From the IMG/VR virus record IMGVR_UViG_2671181011_000016: a stretch of DNA of 53,208 bases; one strand, 5' to 3'. The stretch comes from a virus (Duplodnaviria > Heunggongvirae > Uroviricota > Caudoviricetes). The position numbers and the translations under genes were made by a program. The notes beneath the pieces were generated by a model. The model was not told the origin of the DNA and ran no database searches. It worked only from the letters and a program-made list of their open reading frames with translations. Positions 30,865 to 52,978 of the stretch are shown here, one piece after another. Position 1 is the stretch's first letter. Each line of letters starts with the position of its first letter.

Positions 30865-30908
30865 TATATAACAAAACGGCACTGCCGTAACAATGCCATT
30901 TTGTATAC
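30865..30908 (-). promoter_or_regulatory. sigma70-like promoter with upstream GTATACAAAATGG motif
   Basis: minus strand: motif (30896-30908), -35 TTGTTA, 17-bp spacer, -10 TATATA (30865-30870). Confidence 0.55.
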
Positions 30909-30916
30909 TTTGTGAT

Positions 30917-31740
30917 TCAGATCACGTTATTATCACAAGCGAAAGCCTCGCAACTTTCAGAACAACTACCTGAATCAAACTCTTTCTTGTTAATAATGCT
31001 GCTGCGTATCTCTTCTGTTTCCTCCAGCCTGAACATTGCTATTACGTCCTGCAATGCCATTTTGTTGCGATACATTTCCGGCTTACCTTCCTTGCAATCA
31101 TGTTCTGCAATGCAACTACAAAACTGGTCATATAGTTCAGGTTCATCCCTTGCTGCCAATGCCAACTTCTTGTTGCTCTTCTTAATGCAGAAAACACAAT
31201 TACCAAGATGTTCGGGGATCTCTAAATCAAATGACTGCCCTGACCACCAATCAATAATATCCTGCTTCTCAAAGTCACTTATATCTGCCAGATAGTGAAA
31301 ACCCTCCCTTTCGTGTAGTCTGCGTGGCTCATCTGCCCTAATACCTAACCAGCGTTCATAATTGCCTTTGCCATAGTGTTCATCACAATACTTTTCAAAA
31401 GGTAGTTGTTTCATCCTGTGAGTACAGAATGCCCCGCCGATATAAGGATGGCCATAATGTTCCAGGATTCTCCGCCACGGAACAAGGTCACATCTTATAT
31501 CATCAATACCAATGATCTCGTAACTGAATTTACCGTATTTAATTGCAGGAGGAACGCAGCGGAGGCAAGTTATTTTAATGTTAAAATGTGAGGATAAATT
31601 CTTTATGAACTCGTATGTTTTAGGGTGTTCACCCCTGTATCCATGAAGATAACCTCTGCGTCAGGGTGAATTTTCAATACCTCTAGAGTCATGCAAGCAG
31701 AAGTCCTTCCACCACTGAATGATATTACTTGATGTTTCAT
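30917..31740 (-). pseudogene. PAPS reductase-like (PP-loop ATPase family) gene disrupted by a 1-nt frameshift
   Basis: N-terminal frame MKHQVISFSGGRTSA...FMDTG stops after 45 codons; reading continues in another frame (EHPKTYEFIKN... to 30917); shift lies at a G4 run (31633-31636); a fifth G would restore FMDTGGEHPKTYEF. Confidence 0.65.
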
Positions 31741-34321: not shown

Positions 34322-34448
34322 TTAACGCGCTTGCCATACCCAATATCAATCGCGCTTCTGCACCAGTGACTTTCTTACACCATGCACCGCCCGTTTTATC
34401 TTCGAACAAGATAACGGCAAACTTATCGTTTATTTCCAGCTTATCCAT
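34248..34448 (-). CDS. hypothetical protein
   Basis: 66 aa ORF. Confidence 0.35.
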   Translation of the reverse strand: MDKLEINDKFAVILFEDKTGGAWCKKVTGAEARLILGMASALNDGELPAVPVEPVHIYGRSNDNEA

Positions 34449-35170
34449 TATTCACCCCGCGTCACTCGTTTAATTTCGTTATCTGCCCGCGCCTCTTCTT
34501 TGAACAATTCAGCAATGGCGTCTTCATAGAAAACCCGGTATTTCTTCCACCATGTTGATCGGCTTACCGGAAAAACAAGCTGATTAACCGCCTGCCGGAC
34601 AAGATCTACAGGGAAACGCGAGTACCCGCGCCCGCCGCAGTGATGGCACGTTTTGAACACTGGCATTTCCGCCGCTTCACTGGCTGCTTTATCCGGTACT
34701 TCGCCACGACCCTTGCATTGTTTACAATGATTGCGAACTGTCCCATGCCCCTTGCATTTTTTGCAAAGGTGTTTTTCTCCGTATTCGTCAAACGTAAATT
34801 TATATCCGCCGCACTCCACGCAAGTTTTTTCCGTCGCGGCACTCTGGCAATAATCCCGAAACGCGAAAACGGCAACAAGAATAATGAGATCATTGCGTTT
34901 GGCCTCGTCCAGTTCCATAACGTATTCATAATCTTTTGCCATAGCCCTTAAACGCTCTGTAAGCAAAACTACGGCCTTATGTTTTTCTGCTTGTGATAGT
35001 TCCATCTTCCCTAAAAAAGCACTGTAACCAAGCTCTACGCGCGATTGCGCCATACCTGCGGCAGTTAGTGCATCCGTAGTATTAAGCGCATCCGGGGACG
35101 TGCCCCGGCTTTCATCTGATAAACGCGGCGATTTTGGGAAGTGGAATTTTAGAATTGATTCCAAATTCAT
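34448..35170 (-). CDS. zinc-finger protein with four CxxCxGxG repeats; possible antiterminator Q (phage 82/21 type)
   Basis: 240 aa; CVECGGYK, CKKCKGHG, CKQCKGRG, CHHCGGRG; lies downstream of ninG/rusA as Q does in lambdoid phages; Q assignment is positional. Confidence 0.4.
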   Translation of the reverse strand: MNLESILKFHFPKSPRLSDESRGTSPDALNTTDALTAAGMAQSRVELGYSAFLGKMELSQAEKHKAVVLLTERLRAMAKDYEYVMELDEAKRNDLIILVAVFAFRDYCQSAATEKTCVECGGYKFTFDEYGEKHLCKKCKGHGTVRNHCKQCKGRGEVPDKAASEAAEMPVFKTCHHCGGRGYSRFPVDLVRQAVNQLVFPVSRSTWWKKYRVFYEDAIAELFKEEARADNEIKRVTRGE

Positions 35171-36781: not shown

Positions 36782-36940
36782 AATGCTCTCTCCTTTTCAG
36801 GTGATTTCTACGCATTTCAGCGCTGCCGGATTTTTAAAGAGCATTTCGTTTGCTTGAAGTATACAAAATGGATACACCAGAACAAGGCAAAAAGCGCCAT
36901 TATGTGATCTGTATCACGCAATGACGCCATTATGTAAACT

Positions 36941-37723
36941 TCAGTCCGGCAAAACGCGGTTGAGCGTAGTACGATTGATGGCCCGGTCATTAGCCATGAA
37001 TACAGCACGGGCAAAGCCGCGCGGCGTTAGTGAGCGGATCATCTTTGTTCGTTTCGTCCGGCCTCCTGTTTTTGCCCACCCCGGGTTATCACCAGAGTTA
37101 AGATCTACAGGCCTGAAAAGTGGCTGCTTAAATCCATTACCGCACCAAATACAAGTTTTCTTTGTATACGCGTCGCGCGCCGGGTAAACATCCGGGAAAG
37201 CAGGATGTTTGTCGTCTTCCGGCAGGTAGCCACCGTAATCGCACGGGTTGAAGATAAAATCAGGTTTGCGCCATAGCGTTGACAGTGCTCCCACCGGATT
37301 TTCCACCATCCACGGCACGTTGTGCATATCAGCCAGTTTTTCTACCAGTTTTGCGCTATTCGCCGCCTTCACCTGGAAGTCAGGATCTTTTTCCCGTTTG
37401 TCAGCGAACCAGCGAGCGCCAGACACTGCGAGATCGTCGCACGGCGGGAAGCCCAGGATAATATCAGGATCCGGGTAAACAGATAATTCAGGCGAGAACA
37501 TCACCAGGAAGTGACTGTCAATCCATACGTTAACATATTCAATATTCGGATGAATGATTTTAACGCCTTCATAATCGCCGTGATTTGCGCCGTCATAGTT
37601 GAAGCAATAGCACTTATATCCCGCTTCCGCCCAGTCTTTAACGGCGTAGCCGCTGCCGTCGTACAGCGACCACACAACCCAACTTCTAAGCCAATTATTT
37701 AACCAGTGTTTAGCCTTGCTCAT
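36941..37723 (-). CDS. DNA (cytosine-5)-methyltransferase-like protein with atypical motif IV
   Basis: 260 aa; motif I-like (LYDGSGYA), motif IV-like GFPPCDD (PC followed by D, not Q), motif VI-like MVENPVG; short for a canonical C5-MTase. Confidence 0.45.
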   Translation of the reverse strand: MSKAKHWLNNWLRSWVVWSLYDGSGYAVKDWAEAGYKCYCFNYDGANHGDYEGVKIIHPNIEYVNVWIDSHFLVMFSPELSVYPDPDIILGFPPCDDLAVSGARWFADKREKDPDFQVKAANSAKLVEKLADMHNVPWMVENPVGALSTLWRKPDFIFNPCDYGGYLPEDDKHPAFPDVYPARDAYTKKTCIWCGNGFKQPLFRPVDLNSGDNPGWAKTGGRTKRTKMIRSLTPRGFARAVFMANDRAINRTTLNRVLPD

Positions 37724-40416: not shown

Positions 40417-40515
40417 CTTGTTTCCCTCCGTACCGTAAACCTTTTGATTTAAGTTTACAAAACGGATTCGCGATCACAGTACAAAATGTATAGCTATGTG
40501 ATCGCAATCACAATA

Positions 40516-44687: not shown

Positions 44688-45335
44688 TTATGGCAGGTTT
44701 ACGATCTTCGCATCAACCACCACGCCTATAATTTTTGATTCTGGATTCATAGGGATTGGCGGATACAGCGGATTCAGCGAACGTAAAAGCCTTTGACCTC
44801 CATCAATAATCAACTGTTTAAACGTCGGTATCTGCCCTTCCTCAAGCTGGGCTATAACCAGTTTGCCGTCAATAGCTGGCGCGTGCGGGTCAACAAGTAT
44901 CATCGTCCCCGCCGGGATGCTCAACCCCTGCGGCGCGTTCATTGATTCACCTTTGGCAACCAGCCAGTAACTATCATCTGAACAAATAACGCTAGTCGTA
45001 ACGTGTGGTAATGCTGATCGCCTTGTGTCATCCATATTGTTTACTGTGTCCTTCCAGTCAATAACCGGGTAACTACCTAAATCACGCGGCGGTGCGGCCT
45101 GAAGTGTATTAGAAACAGAATCATCAATGACCATACCATCATGTGTAACAGTGAACTGCCGACGACCAAGCGCCCGCATAATCCGCGCAATATCTTCAAG
45201 ATTTGGCTCGCGGCGACCGTTCAGCCAGTGTGACAGGCCGCCTTTAGTTATCCCCATGAGATCTGCGAGTGAATCCTGACTCATGCCCTGCGCCCGCATG
45301 AGCTGCTTTGCTAAGTCATACCATTTTGTTTTCAT
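44688..45335 (-). CDS. cI: CI-type prophage repressor (HTH plus S24 LexA-like autopeptidase domain)
   Basis: 215 aa; N-terminal HTH (QDSLADLMGITKGGLSHWLNG); C-terminal GESM Ser motif and TFKQLIIDGGQRLLRSLNPLYP closely resembling the lambda CI C-terminus. Confidence 0.85.
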   Translation of the reverse strand: MKTKWYDLAKQLMRAQGMSQDSLADLMGITKGGLSHWLNGRREPNLEDIARIMRALGRRQFTVTHDGMVIDDSVSNTLQAAPPRDLGSYPVIDWKDTVNNMDDTRRSALPHVTTSVICSDDSYWLVAKGESMNAPQGLSIPAGTMILVDPHAPAIDGKLVIAQLEEGQIPTFKQLIIDGGQRLLRSLNPLYPPIPMNPESKIIGVVVDAKIVNLP

Positions 45336-45641: not shown

Positions 45642-45896
45642 ATGAGTATGCACATGATGAATGAAGCATGGAACGTAAAACTTAACAGCCCGATCCAAAA
45701 ACTTGTCTTAATTGCGTTTGCAGAAAAGGCAGACAACAAAGGCCGCGCACATGCTTCACGCGAAGAGATCGCAAAAGTGTGCGAACTGCCACTGCATACT
45801 ACTGTTGACGCATTAAATTCATTGATCCGCAAAGGATTCATTAAACGCGCTGACGAATACGGCGACATTTATGACATTGCATTGCCGGAGGAATGA
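45642..45896 (+). CDS. HTH DNA-binding protein (first gene of rightward operon)
   Basis: 84 aa; RBS AGGAG; winged-helix/HTH-like segment ASREEIAKVCELPLHTTVDALNSLIRKGFIKR; not an obvious Cro. Confidence 0.55.
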   Translation: MSMHMMNEAWNVKLNSPIQKLVLIAFAEKADNKGRAHASREEIAKVCELPLHTTVDALNSLIRKGFIKRADEYGDIYDIALPEE

Positions 45897-45899
45897 TCT

Positions 45900-46958
45900 A
45901 TGAAGTGGTTTAAGCATGATAGCGATGCGAACCGCGATGAAAAACTTCAAAACGTTTTATTAGATTATGGCCTGGAAGGGTACGGGCTTTATTGGTATTG
46001 CCTAGAACTAATAACTTATGACGTAGATCAGCACAATCTAACTTTTGACCTACGACATGACGCAAGAATAATTGCGCGAAACGTCGGATCTACTGAAAAA
46101 CGTATAGAAGAAATGATGAAATACTTCATCGAAATTGGTTTGTTTGAATGTTCTCAAGGCCACATAACTTGTTTAAAGTTATTGAAAAGGCTGGACCAAT
46201 CAATGACTTCTAAAAGCGCTTACAGGGCCGCCATAAACACAGCGAAGGAGCAATTAAAATTAGAAAAGTTAATCAATCCAACACAAAAAGGTCATGATAG
46301 GGTCATGACCGGGTCAGGAAAGGGTCATGAATTAGAATTAGAATTAGAAGTAGAAAAAGAAAGAGAAAAAGATATATACACTTCGTGTATTGTCGAAAAT
46401 GAACAAAAAATGGTCAATCAGGATGGCGCAAACGAAGCGGCGTTGCGTTGCCTGGCCTTCTACAACGACAAGGCAGGATGCAAATGTCGTGATGCGAAGC
46501 CATTCATCGAACTACTGACAGAAACAAAAACACGTAAAGCGTATACGGAGGATGAGATCACATTAGTGATTGAGTGGGCTTTAACGCAATGGCGTAGCCG
46601 TGGTGGAACACCTAAGCCTATAAACATTTGCCGGGTAACTAAATTTGATGGGTATCTGGCTGATGCTGAAAAATGGCGCAAACTGTCAGCCACTGCAAAC
46701 GCTGCCGACGTAGTGGAGGCATTTAACAGCACGTTTGATGGCCTGTTGCCACCTGCCGAACTGGATCGGGATCTTGAACGCAAGATTTATGCGTTCACTG
46801 ACTACCTGAAAGACAAAAGCATCAACGGCTTTGTCGCCTACTTTGAAACGTTCAAAAACACGGCTTCAGATTTTTACTTCGGCAATGGCTTCACAGCGAC
46901 ACTTGATTTCCTTCTTAAACCAAAAACGCTACGTGATACACGATGTGGCGCTCTTTGA
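45900..46958 (+). CDS. replication initiation / replisome organizer protein
   Basis: 352 aa; N-terminus MKWFKHDSDANRDEKL...GLEGYGLYWYCLE resembles organizer-type N-terminal domains; contains phased iterons plus AT-rich tract like lambda O/ori. Confidence 0.55.
   Translation: MKWFKHDSDANRDEKLQNVLLDYGLEGYGLYWYCLELITYDVDQHNLTFDLRHDARIIARNVGSTEKRIEEMMKYFIEIGLFECSQGHITCLKLLKRLDQSMTSKSAYRAAINTAKEQLKLEKLINPTQKGHDRVMTGSGKGHELELELEVEKEREKDIYTSCIVENEQKMVNQDGANEAALRCLAFYNDKAGCKCRDAKPFIELLTETKTRKAYTEDEITLVIEWALTQWRSRGGTPKPINICRVTKFDGYLADAEKWRKLSATANAADVVEAFNSTFDGLLPPAELDRDLERKIYAFTDYLKDKSINGFVAYFETFKNTASDFYFGNGFTATLDFLLKPKTLRDTRCGAL
46288..46382. other. candidate origin of replication: four iterons with 11-bp phasing plus AT-rich tract
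   Basis: GGTCATGA at 46290, 46301, 46323 and GGTCAGGA at 46312 (exact 11-bp spacing), followed by ATTAGAATTAGAATTAGAAGTAGAAAAAGAAAGAGAAAAAGATATATA. Confidence 0.6.
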
Positions 46959-47091
46959 CCAACCACGATCCGCAAAAATCAAAAATTACCCACAAGACAA
47001 CCTCACCAGCGAGCTAAATCGCATATGGTGCTACACTTGCTTACCTTTTTGCGATTAGCTCGTTAGAGAGCGATTCAGAGAGGATTTCAAA

Positions 47092-47193
47092 ATGGACGGT
47101 AAACACGTTTTCGCCCTGGCTTTTGCCATCGCTGCGGCAATCGCTGTTAACGTGGTTTTGTTCGGCGGTTTGTTCCTTCTTGTCAATCCATAA
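47092..47193 (+). CDS. micro-ORF encoding a 33-aa single-TM peptide
   Basis: MDGKHVFALAFAIAAAIAVNVVLFGGLFLLVNP; RBS AGAGAGGA. Confidence 0.4.
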   Translation: MDGKHVFALAFAIAAAIAVNVVLFGGLFLLVNP

Positions 47194-47325
47194 CCTTCAT
47201 ACCAGTCTGTAAATCAAAAATTAGCCACCTGATAGCGCCTCTGGCGCAATAAGACACTGCAACCTGTGCAAACGGGTTACGCGGTGGGATTTTTGCGTTG
47301 TAGCGCGTTTTACGGAGAAATTACA

Positions 47326-48069
47326 ATGTCTGAGTTGATGTGTTTTAATTTTGATGACAATAAAATCACTGCTGTAATTTATGATGGTAAACCTGCTTTT
47401 GTTGCAATGGATGTGGCGCGTGCGCTTGGGTACGCTACGCCACAAAAAGCTATCAAAGATCACTGTAAGTCATTGATAAAAATAAAATGTTCTGAAATGG
47501 AACATTTGGGATTCACTCCAATCCCGCAAGGCGTAACGCTAATCCATGAATCAGATGTTTACCGCCTGGTGATGCGATCAAAAATAGAATCGGCTGAGCG
47601 CTTCCAGGATTGGGTGTGCGAGGATGTTCTCCCTGCTTTGCGTGAAAATGGACATTACGGTTTTAAACCAGCTTTGCCGGATTTCACTGACCCGGTCGCT
47701 GCGGCTCGCGCATGGGCTGATGAGGTGGAACAAAAACTATTAGCACAGAAAGAAGCTGAACGGCTGGCGCTGGAAAACAAGGAATTAGCGCCAAAAGCGG
47801 CTGTCTGTGATGCGATTGTAAGGAACAAACAGTATCGCAACGCAACACAGGTTGCCAGGCCTTTGGGTATGACTGCTACGCAACTCAACAAAAAACTCGA
47901 ACAGGTTGACGTGTACGATACTCGAATTAAGCGCGGCGGGCGTATGTTCAAACAGTGGTTCGTAGATGAAGGCTATGGTGTGGTAAAATGTTCGGATGTT
48001 GGTTACGTACAATCACTATTTACTGCTAAAGGTCAGCTTTGGGTGTCTGAACTTTTTGCGTGTAAGTAG
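47326..48069 (+). CDS. antirepressor (Bro-N plus KilA-C/Ant-type domains)
   Basis: 247 aa from MSELMCFNFDD; RBS ACGGAG; N-terminal Bro-N-like segment (ITAVIYDGKPAFVAMDVARALGY), C-terminal antirepressor-like part. Confidence 0.65.
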   Translation: MSELMCFNFDDNKITAVIYDGKPAFVAMDVARALGYATPQKAIKDHCKSLIKIKCSEMEHLGFTPIPQGVTLIHESDVYRLVMRSKIESAERFQDWVCEDVLPALRENGHYGFKPALPDFTDPVAAARAWADEVEQKLLAQKEAERLALENKELAPKAAVCDAIVRNKQYRNATQVARPLGMTATQLNKKLEQVDVYDTRIKRGGRMFKQWFVDEGYGVVKCSDVGYVQSLFTAKGQLWVSELFACK

Positions 48070-48102
48070 GTATACATTTTGTTAACTGGAGGGATTAACA
48101 TT

Positions 48103-49221
48103 ATGTCGCAAAGAAAAATCAGCGATGAGCAATTGATCGCTGAATACAACAACGGTTTAACGTACAAACAGATTGCTGAGAAGTACGGCATGTCTAAACG
48201 CAATGTCGAGCGCCTGGGCGCAAAACTGGCGAAACGTGGTTTATTATCAACACGCCGCGCGCCTGGTTTTGGCGTCAATGGCGAGTCGTTGCTAGTCGAT
48301 AAAAACGGCAATGTGATCATGCGCTGGATTAAAACAGCCCGTGACCGCGACGAAATGGAACAGTTAATGGAAGCGGCCCGCGACGCTTTCATGGATGAAA
48401 TACCACGCGCGGAGGCTGTGCCAGTGCCTGAAATTGATTTTCAAAAAAGCCTGGCCCTTTATCCGGTGTTTGATCTGCATATCGGGGCGCTTGCTCATAA
48501 AGCTGAATGCGGAGAGAGCTACGATACTGGGATCGCTGAGCGCGTGTTGAATGACTTCTTTGACTACGCCGTTGGCGCTGCTCCGATGTCTGAAAAAGCC
48601 GTTTTGCTTCTCGGTGGCGACCTGCTTCATTCTGACGGTATGGTCCCGGTGACGCCAATAAGCGGGCACATTCTTGATCAAGATAGTCGCTACGCAAAAC
48701 TTGTTTATGTGGCGATCAGGTCTGTCCGGCGGGCGGTAGGTAAAATGTTGTTAAATCATAAGGATGTTGAAATCCAGGTGTTATCAGGCAATCACGATCA
48801 GTCAGGCATGATTTGGCTACGTGCGGCGCTGGCGGCTTTTTACGAAGATGAACCGCGCGTGACGGTTGATGTGTCACCTGCTATCGTCCACCACACACAG
48901 TACGGCAAAACATTCCTTGCTTACCACCACGGGCACACTATCAAAAAGCCGGAAAATTTATTGTCTGCTTGCGTAGCTGACTGGCGTGAGGATTTTGGCA
49001 AGTCTGCGGCGGTTTACGCTCATTGCGGGCACTGGCACCATCAACGGCTGATTGAATCATCGCTAGGCGTTGTTGAGTATCACGGCACATTAGCGGGTAA
49101 AGACGCTTATTCAACTAATGGCGGCTGGCGGTCGCGGCGTCTGGCGGCGGTGGTTATTTACAGCCCGGATCATGGGGAGATCGGGCGCTTTGTTTATTAC
49201 CCTGAATTTTCCATTTTGTAA
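48103..49221 (+). CDS. HTH-domain protein fused to a calcineurin-like metallophosphoesterase domain
   Basis: 372 aa from MSQRKISDEQ (RBS GGAGGG); N-terminal HTH (LTYKQIAEKYGMSKRNVERL); phosphoesterase motifs DLHIG, GGDLLH, GNHD, HHGH. Confidence 0.55.
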   Translation: MSQRKISDEQLIAEYNNGLTYKQIAEKYGMSKRNVERLGAKLAKRGLLSTRRAPGFGVNGESLLVDKNGNVIMRWIKTARDRDEMEQLMEAARDAFMDEIPRAEAVPVPEIDFQKSLALYPVFDLHIGALAHKAECGESYDTGIAERVLNDFFDYAVGAAPMSEKAVLLLGGDLLHSDGMVPVTPISGHILDQDSRYAKLVYVAIRSVRRAVGKMLLNHKDVEIQVLSGNHDQSGMIWLRAALAAFYEDEPRVTVDVSPAIVHHTQYGKTFLAYHHGHTIKKPENLLSACVADWREDFGKSAAVYAHCGHWHHQRLIESSLGVVEYHGTLAGKDAYSTNGGWRSRRLAAVVIYSPDHGEIGRFVYYPEFSIL

Positions 49222-49239
49222 ACCGGAGGCAATAACATA

Positions 49240-50655
49240 ATGGTAACTGAACAAATAAACTCACTACGGCAGGAACGTGAGGCGTCAGTTATCGGCGGGC
49301 TGCTGTTGGGCGGCCTTACTCCTAACGCGCAAGATGTTCTCGCCACGCTTGATCCTGAAGTGTTCACGATCCCGCTCTATAAACGTGCGTTTGAAGTTAT
49401 CCGGGCACAAGCCAGAAACAGAAATCTTATTGATGCATTGCTGGTCGGTGATGAGATTGGTAATGAAAATTTCGTACCGCTAATGCAAACGGCGCGATCG
49501 TGCCCGTCTGCTGCCAACCTGAAGGGATACGCACAGCTACTACGTGAAGAGCACCAGCGGCGGCAGATGTTGGAACTCATCGACGATATGCGCTACAAAC
49601 TGGAAACGGGGACGCTTGAGGTCGTCAAAGAGACGATGAAAGATTTTGATTCCCGGTACTCAAAATTAAAGGTAACGAAAGATAAGATCATTCCGGTTCT
49701 GTTGCGCGATGCGGTACAGGAATATACGGATGTTTTAAGCAAGCGCATGGAATGCGGTGTCAATTCTGACAACATCAAAACAGGTATAGAACCACTCGAC
49801 GAAATGTTGGGCGGCATTAACGCTACTGATTTGGTACTTCTCGCCGGACGCCCTGGGTCTGGTAAATCTGCGTTGGCGCTGACAATTGCCCGCGCTGCCG
49901 CTGAACGCCCTTACCCTGGCAGTAAAGATCAGCGGGTTGGCGTTTTGTTCTTCACTCTTGAAATGTCACTCGATCAGATGACTGAGCGAGCTATCGCTGG
50001 CGCTGGTAATTTATCAACTGACTGCCTGCGCAATCCGGTAAAACTTGATGATGAAGGGTGGGCGCATGTCGGCCAGGGTATGAGCGCACTTGCTAACCTT
50101 GATGTGTGGATCGTTGACGCGTCGCAGTTAACGGTTGAGGAAATACGCGCAACAACGGAACGCATGAAACAGGATCACCCAAATTTGGGTATGGTAATGA
50201 TTGACTATATCGGCTTAATGCAGCTGGCTAAGGCCGAACGTCACGATCTCGCCGTTGGGCAATTGTCGTGGTCGTTAAAGATGATGGCGAAAGAATTGCG
50301 TGTACCAGTGTTGGCGCTGGCGCAACTGTCACGCCGCGTTGAGGAACGACCGAACAAGCGCCCTAACAATTCTGATCTTCGTGATTCTGGCAACCTTGAG
50401 CAAGATGCCGACAGGATCATCATGGTTTACCGCGATGGGTATTACGACGAACAGTCTGTTGCCCGCGAATATATGGAAATCATTGTGTCAAAAAACCGTC
50501 ATGGTAAGTCTGGAACTGTTTACCAGCGGTTTGATGACAACGGTAATATCTTGCCATGCGACCAGGCTCGCGCAGCCGCCGCGTGTATTCAGTCAATGAA
50601 TCATCGCACAAGCCGTTTTAACCAACGAAACAATCAGAATAACACATCTTTTTAA
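49240..50655 (+). CDS. dnaB: replicative DNA helicase, DnaB family
   Basis: 471 aa; Walker A GRPGSGKS, Walker B-like VMIDYIGLM, N-terminal DnaB-like domain; RBS GGAGG. Confidence 0.85.
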   Translation: MVTEQINSLRQEREASVIGGLLLGGLTPNAQDVLATLDPEVFTIPLYKRAFEVIRAQARNRNLIDALLVGDEIGNENFVPLMQTARSCPSAANLKGYAQLLREEHQRRQMLELIDDMRYKLETGTLEVVKETMKDFDSRYSKLKVTKDKIIPVLLRDAVQEYTDVLSKRMECGVNSDNIKTGIEPLDEMLGGINATDLVLLAGRPGSGKSALALTIARAAAERPYPGSKDQRVGVLFFTLEMSLDQMTERAIAGAGNLSTDCLRNPVKLDDEGWAHVGQGMSALANLDVWIVDASQLTVEEIRATTERMKQDHPNLGMVMIDYIGLMQLAKAERHDLAVGQLSWSLKMMAKELRVPVLALAQLSRRVEERPNKRPNNSDLRDSGNLEQDADRIIMVYRDGYYDEQSVAREYMEIIVSKNRHGKSGTVYQRFDDNGNILPCDQARAAAACIQSMNHRTSRFNQRNNQNNTSF

Positions 50656-50731
50656 TTAATCTGAGCAAACGGCTTACCGGAAAGTTTACCGCTTTCTGGT
50701 GGCTGTTATCGCGTTTTAAACGAGGCTAAAA

Positions 50732-51289
50732 ATGAGCGCTGAAATTGAAACAAAAATTATCAATATCCTTGAACTTGATGGCATCGCAACAATGCACCAG
50801 TTACGCCAGAAAACAGGGTTATTGGCTTGGTATGATAAGGATGGAATCATGCCTGAGACAATTAAACACTTAATAAAAAACGGCATCGTCGAGCGCGTGT
50901 ATACATGTTTTGGACGCCGCCGCCGCCTGCTGGGTTATCGCATTAAACAGTTATATGCTGAACGTCGTGAGCGTGTTGCGTCGTTATTTGGTGACTACAG
51001 CGTTAAAAAACGTATGCGCGACATTAGCGCTGAGACTGGTATCCCGTGGAATTATCTTTCTCGTACTCTTCGCCTAATGGTGATTGATGAAACACTTTGC
51101 GTTGATCCAAATAGGCACGGAGTTAACTTTTACTCACTGTTTAAACCTGGGCGATTCGGTCACGCTAATGATTTGGCGTTTGACTTTGACAGCCGCCTGA
51201 ACGAATACCGGAAAAATAACGGCCTGCTACCTGATAAACCAGTGTTTGAGATTGAAAAACTTAACGGTGAAACGGGGTTGGAATTATGA
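50732..51289 (+). CDS. hypothetical protein with N-terminal winged-helix-like segment
   Basis: 185 aa; RBS ACGAGG; no recognisable catalytic motif. Confidence 0.5.
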   Translation: MSAEIETKIINILELDGIATMHQLRQKTGLLAWYDKDGIMPETIKHLIKNGIVERVYTCFGRRRRLLGYRIKQLYAERRERVASLFGDYSVKKRMRDISAETGIPWNYLSRTLRLMVIDETLCVDPNRHGVNFYSLFKPGRFGHANDLAFDFDSRLNEYRKNNGLLPDKPVFEIEKLNGETGLEL

Positions 51290-52318: not shown

Positions 52319-52978
52319 ATGAATAAACTTAAAGTAATTGGCGTGATTAGCCATCGTACTAACCCTGAGTGTTACCCATCGTTTGAGGTAACAACATGCC
52401 GCACAGAATATAATTTTGGATCATGCTATTTAATGGGCATTCGCGCTGACACTGGCGGCACTTATTCTGTTATGGCTGCAAGCTGGAAATTTGAAAAATA
52501 CGATGATTTATCGAATAAGGATGATGACGGCATGAATAAAGAAAGTGAAGTTGTTGATGAATTAATCGAAGACGAACGCCGTGACTGCGAAACGAAACAA
52601 GAAAAAACGGAATGGAAGCCAGGAGAAAAGCCGCCGTGCGGCGTGTGGCTTGAATGTTATTATCCTGATGGTTATCTAGTTGGGATTGTAATGTTTAAAT
52701 TTGTCGGTGATAAATTCGGTGTGTACACTGAAAAAGGCAGTAAACAGCAAGAACATACTATTGATTGGGGTTTTTGTAATTATTTTTTATATGTTGACCC
52801 GAAAGAAAAAGCACTTGCTGAAATCGCGTTTGCACTTGCTATCAAAGTTATGGGTGAAGACGCGGCAAAAGAGATTGACTTTAACCATGACAATGATTTT
52901 TCGTGCGATTATCGCAATATGGCGCAAGCTATTATTGATGGATGTATCGGACACGTTGAATACACGGGGAAAAGATAA
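52319..52978 (+). CDS. hypothetical protein
   Basis: 219 aa ORF; no recognisable domain. Confidence 0.5.
   Translation: MNKLKVIGVISHRTNPECYPSFEVTTCRTEYNFGSCYLMGIRADTGGTYSVMAASWKFEKYDDLSNKDDDGMNKESEVVDELIEDERRDCETKQEKTEWKPGEKPPCGVWLECYYPDGYLVGIVMFKFVGDKFGVYTEKGSKQQEHTIDWGFCNYFLYVDPKEKALAEIAFALAIKVMGEDAAKEIDFNHDNDFSCDYRNMAQAIIDGCIGHVEYTGKR

Follow-up and report, generated by a model that had tools for sequence, protein, structure and literature searches.

An interchangeable antirepressor-type gene and a conserved helix-turn-helix metallophosphoesterase in the replication operon of an mEp021-group coliphage

Why should a phage carry an antirepressor-type gene and a gene for a phosphoesterase between the gene of its replication initiator and that of its replicative helicase? 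This question is raised by a 53,208-nucleotide (nt) stretch of DNA from a virus of the Caudoviricetes (IMG/VR record IMGVR_UViG_2671181011_000016), here called the window in its full length. An earlier note, made from the sequence alone, pointed to a Bro-N/Ant-type gene and to a gene for a protein which joins an N-terminal helix-turn-helix (HTH) to a calcineurin-like metallophosphoesterase (MPE) domain. It considered the fusion unusual and both genes as inserted into a replication module, and it suggested that the protein is a DNA-targeted nuclease or phosphatase involved in replication, or in defence or counter-defence. The genes were found where the note had placed them:

45900-46958, plus strand: replication initiator/organiser, 352 amino acids (aa), left border (Pfam Lin1244_N, expect value (E) 7e-11; PHROG 20981, E 6e-156)
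47326-48069, plus strand: Bro-N and KilAC/ANT antirepressor-type gene, 247 aa (Pfam; PHROG 130)
48103-49221, plus strand: HTH-MPE gene, 372 aa (PHROG 704)
49240-50655, plus strand: DnaB-family replicative helicase, 471 aa, right border (Pfam DnaB_C, E 8e-76, and DnaB, E 5e-12; PHROG 19, E 1e-109)

On balance we consider it probable that the Ant-type gene is cargo and that the HTH-MPE protein would be a DNA-tethered nuclease in early phage DNA metabolism. To judge from identity and synteny, the source is an mEp021-group (mEpimmI) temperate coliphage or prophage and the region is part of its early rightward operon. The 5.1 kb around both genes were 93% identical in nt sequence with Escherichia phage mEp515 and 89-95% identical with other temperate coliphages of this group, and synteny with mEp021 was retained. 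A simple consensus scan of the plus strand from 46100 to 51100 yielded neither promoter-like sites nor convincing terminators; the single weak hairpin, at 49131-49148, lies within the MPE gene. Therefore, the genes were read as one early rightward operon. The mEp021-group phages have been described in a paper which is silent on the function of the Ant-type and MPE genes (PMC11893012).

The first part of the answer concerns the Ant-type gene. Both domains of its product scored above the Pfam cut-offs, Bro-N with 77.4 bits (cut-off 25.6; E 1.4e-21; nt 47365-47634) and ANT/KilAC with 39.5 bits (cut-off 25.3; E 7.6e-10; nt 47773-48057), and PHROG 130, "anti-repressor Ant", was matched over the full length (E 7e-52). 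Thus the protein has the two domains and the profile of the Bro-N/KilAC antirepressor class (P22 Ant-like, BRO), and the domain shuffling typical of this class was also present in the corresponding proteins of sister genomes. The gene differs from this class in its setting as it sits under cI/PR control inside the replication operon, and a regulatory immI-type region (Mnt/Arc-like) was not seen around it. Three features delimit the surroundings of the two genes:

47320-48070: cargo slot 1 as filled here, a 751-bp gene-sized indel without a promoter or terminator of its own (blastn)
48075-48105, plus strand: translation-initiation region of the MPE gene with motif CATTTTGTTAAC and a GGAGG ribosome-binding site (repeat search)
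49197-49206: cargo slot 2, empty here (blastn break points and junction sequences)

In phage MagusPhagus homology stops at 47319 and restarts at 48071 with 4 bp between (blastn), i.e. the Ant gene is precisely absent. The Ant open reading frame (ORF) and the ribosome-binding site belonging to it therefore make up an exact indel of 751 bp. In mEp021 the segment 47304-48080 is swapped for 1530 bp which encode a 495-aa zinc-ribbon protein (blastn). The slot was then surveyed with conserved anchors in 41 group genomes (38 IMG/VR loci and three GenBank phages). It was empty (51-52 bp) in seven. Fourteen genomes carried proteins of 236-256 aa whose N-terminal domain is Bro-N or Rha and whose C-terminal domain is mostly ANT, and all fourteen proteins begin with MS[ED]LM[VC]F. 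Treble-clef zinc-finger repeats with a T5orf172/MUG113 domain (166-495 aa) filled the slot in 16 genomes, and a 351-aa protein with a DUF559 endonuclease-like C-terminus did so in the remaining four. The same alternatives (BRO, KilAC, Rha, zinc-ribbon) were encountered in RefSeq E. coli prophages, where the locus is present in 35 of 5426 complete genomes. This variability among the 41 genomes places the Ant gene outside the replication module. The Ant-type gene is interchangeable accessory cargo in a hypervariable slot and no component of the replication machinery, and the slot 1 genes are partly selfish-looking residents of a hot spot.

The cargo proteins themselves are variable in an orderly manner. 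Those of the antirepressor type are mosaics in which the common first seven residues are followed by alternative N-terminal (Bro-N or Rha) and alternative C-terminal domains. The zinc-finger/T5orf172 proteins differ chiefly by the count of treble-clef repeats of about 65 aa, which results in lengths of 166, 178, 240, 307 and 495 aa. The Ant-type gene would be co-transcribed with the replication genes. As far as its family name goes, the product might bind a repressor or another DNA-binding protein. The resident cI has an S24/UmuD-like autocleavage domain; therefore an antirepressor is unnecessary for SOS induction of the prophage. The PADLOC defence models gave no match with the Ant-type protein at E<0.01.

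The MPE gene behaves differently. It is a fixed core gene of the group, located directly upstream of DnaB in all 41 genomes. Hence, the claim that two genes had been inserted into the module holds for the Ant gene, which MagusPhagus lacks, and fails for the MPE gene. The distance to DnaB is about 49 bp in 35 genomes. In the other six, slot 2 is filled by a homing-endonuclease gene with HNH_3 and AP2 domains (Pfam HNH_3, E 2e-21) and the gap is 565-570 bp. In mEp515 and mEp021 this gene is about 510 bp long, and its insertion rewrites the last MPE codons. The initiation region of the MPE gene (48075-48105) and that of DnaB (49212-49242) constitute a 31-nt direct repeat of 84% identity which includes ribosome-binding site and ATG. 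Both slot junctions adjoin these 31-nt repeats, which suggests that the repeats act as recombination 'linkers' for module exchange.

An HNH_3 and AP2 gene was located directly downstream of the MPE gene in mEp515/mEp021, in phage T1 and in a marine Vibrio phage. With identities of 41% and 34% these endonucleases are homologous, and one homing-endonuclease lineage may follow the 3' end of the MPE gene across phage families. The coordinates within the respective loci are:

L001, 6566-7120: HNH_3 and AP2 gene
L002, 7317-7820: HNH_3 and AP2 gene
L004, 7207-7689: HNH_3 and AP2 gene
L009, 6208-6717: HNH_3 and AP2 gene

What kind of protein does the core gene encode? By its profile match it is an ordinary member of PHROG 704, a large phage-restricted family to which T1 gp16 and Rtp61 belong: aa 4-368 aligned with profile positions 2-387 of 390 (E 7.8e-140). 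In E. coli the protein clusters at 99% identity. With T1 it has 57% identity over aa 1-369, and the relatives spread widely from there:

T1 gp16: 57% identity to the MPE protein of the window
Rtp rtp61: 54%
Webervirus-type Klebsiella phages: about 60%
Jerseyvirus, Dhillonvirus and Kagunavirus: about 44%
Jedunavirus: 39%
Rhizobium phage 16-3: 45%, MPE part only
Vibrio siphophages: 31%
N4-like roseophages: 28%
Campylobacter myoviruses: 28%

The combination of HTH and MPE, which had been thought unusual, turned out to be the norm of this family. By tblastn, homologues were present in 2041 of 50,697 GenBank phage records (about 4%), and in 1955 of these the match spans 80% or more of the query, N-terminus included. 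Only four of 72,556 plasmid records contained a homologue, and all four are phage-sized. A profile search of 1.84 billion representatives returned 5258 clusters (50% identity) at E<1e-3 and 1303 at E<1e-30. The majority are 370-420 aa long and aligned from near the N-terminus; for most of the 150 best representatives the alignment starts no later than profile position 35. HTH and Metallophos Pfam matches were obtained across 58 diverse members. Longer members contain two HTHs and no other enzyme domain; a minority is HTH-less, such as the 317-aa protein of Campylobacter phage Los1 and some representatives of about 310 aa. T1 gp16, Rtp rtp61, SETP13 gp23, jat gp07 and KpV52 gp73 have the same succession of HTH, linker and MPE domain in about 370-380 aa and identical catalytic motifs, and similarity to the Jerseyvirus and Dhillonvirus proteins (44%) extends over the full length. 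No structural difference from these named members was seen. Solely the genomic setting differs: in this temperate phage the gene has a constant place, with a cargo slot on one side and DnaB on the other, whereas in the lytic relatives it is near lysis, terminase or tail genes.

The names given to PHROG 704 are "DNA repair exonuclease" and "putative phosphoesterase", and PGAP calls the protein "hypothetical protein". The label "DNA repair exonuclease" rests purely on remote similarity. The domains and motifs of the protein are:

48115-48252, plus strand: predicted N-terminal three-helix HTH, about aa 5-50, of the LuxR/GerE/sigma-70-region-4 type (model and Pfam matches of relatives)
48442-49197, plus strand: binuclear MPE domain, about aa 114-365
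48472-48486: motif I, DLHIG, aa 124-128
48613-48630: motif II, GGDLLH, aa 171-176
48787-48798: motif III, GNHD, aa 229-232
48925-48936: motif IV, HHGH, aa 275-278
49027-49041: motif V, GHWHH, aa 309-313

The first four motifs are those already quoted in the earlier note. All five motifs of the superfamily (DxH, GD, GNH[DE], H and GHxH) are thus present, and the model has the beta-sandwich MPE fold. D124, H126, D173, N230, H231, H276 and H312 were invariant both among 23 close homologues and in an alignment of 58 sequences with 28-57% identity; H310, H176, D178 and D232 were conserved to at least 90% in the same alignments. Loss of the motifs in homologues, or alignment with a known replication factor devoid of catalytic residues, had been named as findings which would refute the earlier reading. 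Neither was observed, and the metal ligands proved to be invariant.

Structure prediction, which had also been proposed, returned a three-helix HTH and an MPE fold. The HTH helices were modelled at aa 8-16, 21-28 and 32-44 with predicted local distance difference test (pLDDT) values of 81-87, and a beta-hairpin plus a helix link them to the MPE domain. For the N-terminus of the window protein HTH matches in Pfam were sub-threshold only. The same region in relatives matched Sigma70_r4_2 (1.5e-9) and GerE (2.4e-8), the former in 21 of 23 close relatives, and the family profile matched GerE with E 0.011 and, more weakly, RhlR and NarL. Similarly, Pfam Metallophos (PF00149) did not match the window protein at E<0.01 and was not listed at E<10, while relatives reached E values down to 7e-6 and one (P0147) exceeded the cut-off with 25.1 versus 21.5 bits. 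The PF00149 miss is a sensitivity limit of the Pfam model and no argument against the fold.

Which branch of the superfamily is closest? Structure neighbours were MJ0936, Mre11/SbcD and the polymerase B-subunit/DP1; in Foldseek LpxH and COG0622 ranked on top. A single-protein sequence search of the PDB gave matches at chance level only. Among PDB MPE chains the family profile picked up only Mre11/SbcD (2q8u, E 0.09; 3qg5, E 0.32) and a 'Nuclease MPE' (E 0.8), all non-significant. Motif II of Mre11 is GDLFH; motif II of the window protein is GDLLH with the His conserved as in Mre11. With hhalign, probabilities against single SbcD and NinI sequences and the gp47-family profile were all at most 13%; for E. 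coli SbcD as a single sequence it was 2.4%, and such values carry hardly any information. The MPE domain is thus divergent and, by its residues, catalytically intact, and its affinities lean to the nuclease branch at the level of the superfamily only. From Mre11/SbcD, including the phage T4 gp47-type, it differs by the absence of a capping domain and of a Rad50/SbcC partner, by the HTH at the N-terminus instead, and by a sequence similarity which is below significance. A Rad50/SbcC partner was not encoded in the window, where the only ORFs of at least 500 aa are tail fibre, J-like and tape-measure proteins.

Lambda NinI (PPP family), like the window protein, is a phage member of the calcineurin-like superfamily from an early rightward operon. 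Yet the PPP motifs GDxHG, GDxVDRG and GNHE were not found in the window MPE, and NinI-type phosphatases were absent among the structure neighbours. Likeness to NinI was thus borne out neither by motifs nor by alignment.

A functional precedent is available from cluster A mycobacteriophages. Their MPEs gp47 and gp48 are reported as essential for phage DNA replication and as having exonuclease/DNase and phosphodiesterase activity (PMC11795197; PMC12287305). For A10ZJ24 gp48 phosphodiesterase and DNase activities depended on the conserved motifs; the protein is expressed early, degrades host DNA and is required for phage DNA replication in M. tuberculosis (PMC12287305). Bxb1 gp47 and A10ZJ24 gp48 are, like the protein under study, phage MPEs with an intact active site, and they are encoded in a replication module between polymerase and primase/DnaB-like helicase. 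They differ in having 255 aa, no HTH and a different family, PHROG 221. Bxb1 gp47 matched PHROG 221 with E 4.5e-116, and this family was not among the matches of the window MPE at E<1e-3. The precedent is one of analogy, with no homology visible beyond the superfamily.

Taken together, we infer a nucleic-acid substrate, tethering by the HTH and a biological role as follows. The HTH would tether the enzyme to DNA and thereby supply the DNA contact which Rad50/SbcC or capping domains give to Mre11/SbcD. The MPE domain would hydrolyse DNA phosphodiester bonds as an Mre11/SbcD-like endo- or exonuclease which needs no Rad50/SbcC partner. The protein would act early in infection or induction. Candidate tasks are the processing of replication or recombination intermediates or of DNA ends and, possibly, degradation of host DNA. 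Because the family occurs in temperate as well as lytic phages, we slightly favour a role on phage replication or recombination intermediates over a wholesale breakdown of host DNA. A DNA-directed nuclease, one of the options raised earlier, is thus our best guess.

Several observations weigh against this assignment. Comparison of the MPE family profile with the gp47 family aligned motifs III-V only (E 0.016, probability 2.8%). The structure model is of moderate quality (pLDDT 72), and the loops aa 177-195 and 329-345, which are strongly conserved in homologues and contain invariant positions, are poorly modelled. DNA binding by the HTH is itself presumptive. In the literature on mEp021, T1 and related phages an experiment on any PHROG 704 member was not found. 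Finally, the genomic context is inconstant outside the group, as exemplified by the small terminase gene in Dhillonvirus, the lysis genes in T1 and the tail module in Jerseyvirus.

In T1 and Rtp the genes of a helicase, VRR-NUC and Dam and some small ORFs come before the gene, and holin and lysin come after it; T1 has an HNH gene between it and the lysis genes. Dhillonvirus jat has the lysis genes on one side of it and the small terminase gene on the other. In Jerseyvirus SETP13 the gene belongs to a small divergent island surrounded by tail genes, and in KpV52 it closes the early operon, downstream of primase. In Campylobacter phage Los1 it comes after DNA ligase, with RusA nearby, and in an N4-like Ruegeria phage (roseophage) after thyX and dCMP deaminase. 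In Vibrio phages it is located among lysis genes ahead of the head genes. What these settings share is an early or DNA-metabolism neighbourhood, in many cases at the boundary from early to late genes.

A bolder version of a nuclease function is possible, though we regard it as doubtful: the HTH-MPE family may constitute a previously unrecognised, phage-specific replication/recombination nuclease in which the HTH directs a Rad50-independent, Mre11-like site to a particular DNA site or structure. Its tasks could be the nick or break which starts rolling-circle or recombination-dependent replication, or end resection for the annealing protein Erf; in the mEp021 group Erf has no recognised exonuclease partner. 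The MPE gene would then be important enough for an HNH-AP2 homing-endonuclease lineage of its own to track it across phage families.

Alternatively, the MPE may act on a small molecule or phosphoprotein instead of DNA and serve counter-defence or metabolic takeover. We consider this unlikely. Substrates might be cyclic or linear (oligo)nucleotides, Ap4A-type compounds, 2',3'-cyclic phosphates, 3'-phosphate ends or phosphoproteins as with NinI. The top Foldseek ranks of LpxH and COG0622 would agree with such an enzyme, and the HTH-less homologue of Los1 downstream of DNA ligase would also fit an end-healing phosphatase. However, the HTH, sometimes in duplicate, persists across the family, a retention not easily explained if the substrate were a small molecule, and the neighbouring genes are mostly those of DNA metabolism. 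Moreover, no PADLOC model matched and no link of PHROG 704 to anti-defence was found in the literature.

Somewhat less likely still is a transcription regulator whose HTH activates or represses middle or late promoters while the MPE domain is a sensor or accessory module. The type of HTH is typical of activators (GerE, RhlR and NarL matches), and in the lytic relatives T1, Rtp, jat and the Vibrio phages the gene is at the early-to-late boundary. Against this, the window already has a Q-like late regulator at 34448-35170, invariant catalytic ligands are unexpected of a mere sensor, and HTH-less members exist (Los1, 317 aa; others of about 310 aa). Nor did an over-represented motif next to the gene supply a binding site. 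The 12-mer CATTTTGTWAAC (at most one mismatch) is over-represented in the window with 11 copies versus 1.2 expected, a count reached in none of 100 shuffles:

9509, 11735, 26003, 30897, 36859, 36928, 40453, 44567, 45410, 48075 and 49212: CATTTTGTWAAC sites

Two copies are located exactly 28 nt upstream of the ATGs of MPE and DnaB. Another two flank cI, one of which abuts the -35 of a leftward promoter-like site, TTGACT-17-TATATT. The positions are conserved across the mEp021-group loci. Yet the 12-mer was absent from the T1-like loci (L051-L091), which carry the same protein family; therefore it belongs to the phage group and not to the MPE family. Consequently it was rejected as recognition site of the HTH and is no candidate for a place where the protein binds. 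The 12-mer may serve as an operator or otherwise in regulation, or it may be a sequence conserved at gene boundaries.

We rate a non-catalytic replisome component as improbable, lower again than a regulator. In this case the protein would be a loader or adaptor for DnaB, comparable to the inactivated MPE B-subunits which scaffold eukaryotic polymerases. DnaB is adjacent in 41 of 41 group genomes, the 31-nt translation-initiation region is common to both genes, and a separate helicase loader was not recognised in the module. On the other hand, to our knowledge modules of P22-type initiator and DnaB-like helicase work without a loader. Further, T1, Jerseyvirus, Dhillonvirus, Jedunavirus and the Vibrio phages have no DnaB-type helicase beside the gene and use other helicases and primases. 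The catalytic residues are invariant, unlike those of B-subunits. Because of these residues and because DnaB adjacency is limited to the mEp021 group, a helicase loader or scaffold was rejected as principal explanation.

A moonlighting role as recombination directionality factor (RDF) is essentially excluded: its sole support is the recruitment of a phage MPE from a replication module as RDF, i.e. Bxb1 gp47 for a serine integrase (PMC11795197), while the integrase of the mEp021 group has 404 aa and an AlpA-like HTH gene as neighbour and is no large serine integrase, the family abounds in strictly lytic phages such as T1, and PHROG 704 is not PHROG 221 of gp47. As a component of a defence system the MPE protein was set aside since PADLOC gave no match at E<0.01; the suggestion of defence or counter-defence is neither favoured nor contradicted by these results.

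Both genes fall into families which are already catalogued, and GenBank contains their arrangement in mEp515 (93% identical). The remaining interest is that PHROG 704 is a very common phage family for which functional experiments were not found in the literature. About 4% of the sequenced genomes of phages carry a member, among them T1 and many phages of Klebsiella, Salmonella and E. coli which are considered for therapy. If PHROG 704 acts like gp47 and gp48, a widespread and essentially phage-restricted enzyme would be at hand, and this would matter for the question of how siphoviruses without a polymerase replicate or take over their host. The cargo slots which flank the MPE gene are a clear example of the exchange of gene-sized modules beside a conserved gene.

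Further features of the window are:

34448-35170: Q-like late regulator (PHROG 127, E 5e-78)
44688-45335, minus strand: cI-type repressor with an S24/UmuD-like C-terminus
45642-45896, plus strand: 84-aa HTH_36 protein
46290-46355: candidate origin inside the initiator gene, three overlapping 11-bp iterons GGTCATGAnnG followed by AT-rich AATTAGAA repeats (repeat search)
47093-47194, plus strand: small conserved ORF for a strongly hydrophobic 33-aa peptide, MDGKHVFALAFAIAAAIAVNVVLFGGLFLLVNP (read from the sequence)

The initiator also matched PHROGs 428 and 345, both of replication initiation, though less strongly. By analogy with the lambda-type origin within the O gene, 46290-46355 is the probable origin of replication; its AT-rich part encodes a ELELELEVEKEREK linker. 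The small ORF corresponds in place to an annotated 102-nt coding sequence, mEp515_14. Its segment is the last conserved element before cargo slot 1 and served as left anchor, found in 41 of 42 group loci.

Inverted repeats of the GATCACA/TGTGATC type were seen beside several CATTTTGTWAAC copies in intergenic stretches of the leftward operon (30897-30940, 36830-36960 and 40440-40500); these may be operator-like or nut-like regions. A 219-aa ORF in the early rightward operon (52319-52978) had no PHROG match at E<1e-5, and the corresponding ORFs of mEp021 and mEp515 carry the annotation "hypothetical". The window begins (positions 1-3) exactly with the stop codon of a tail-fibre gene. Its end (52978-53208) falls within an AlpA/excisionase-like ORF. 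An integrase-sized ORF is absent from the window itself; in mEp021 the integrase gene adjoins the AlpA-like gene, and here it is presumably located just beyond the window end.

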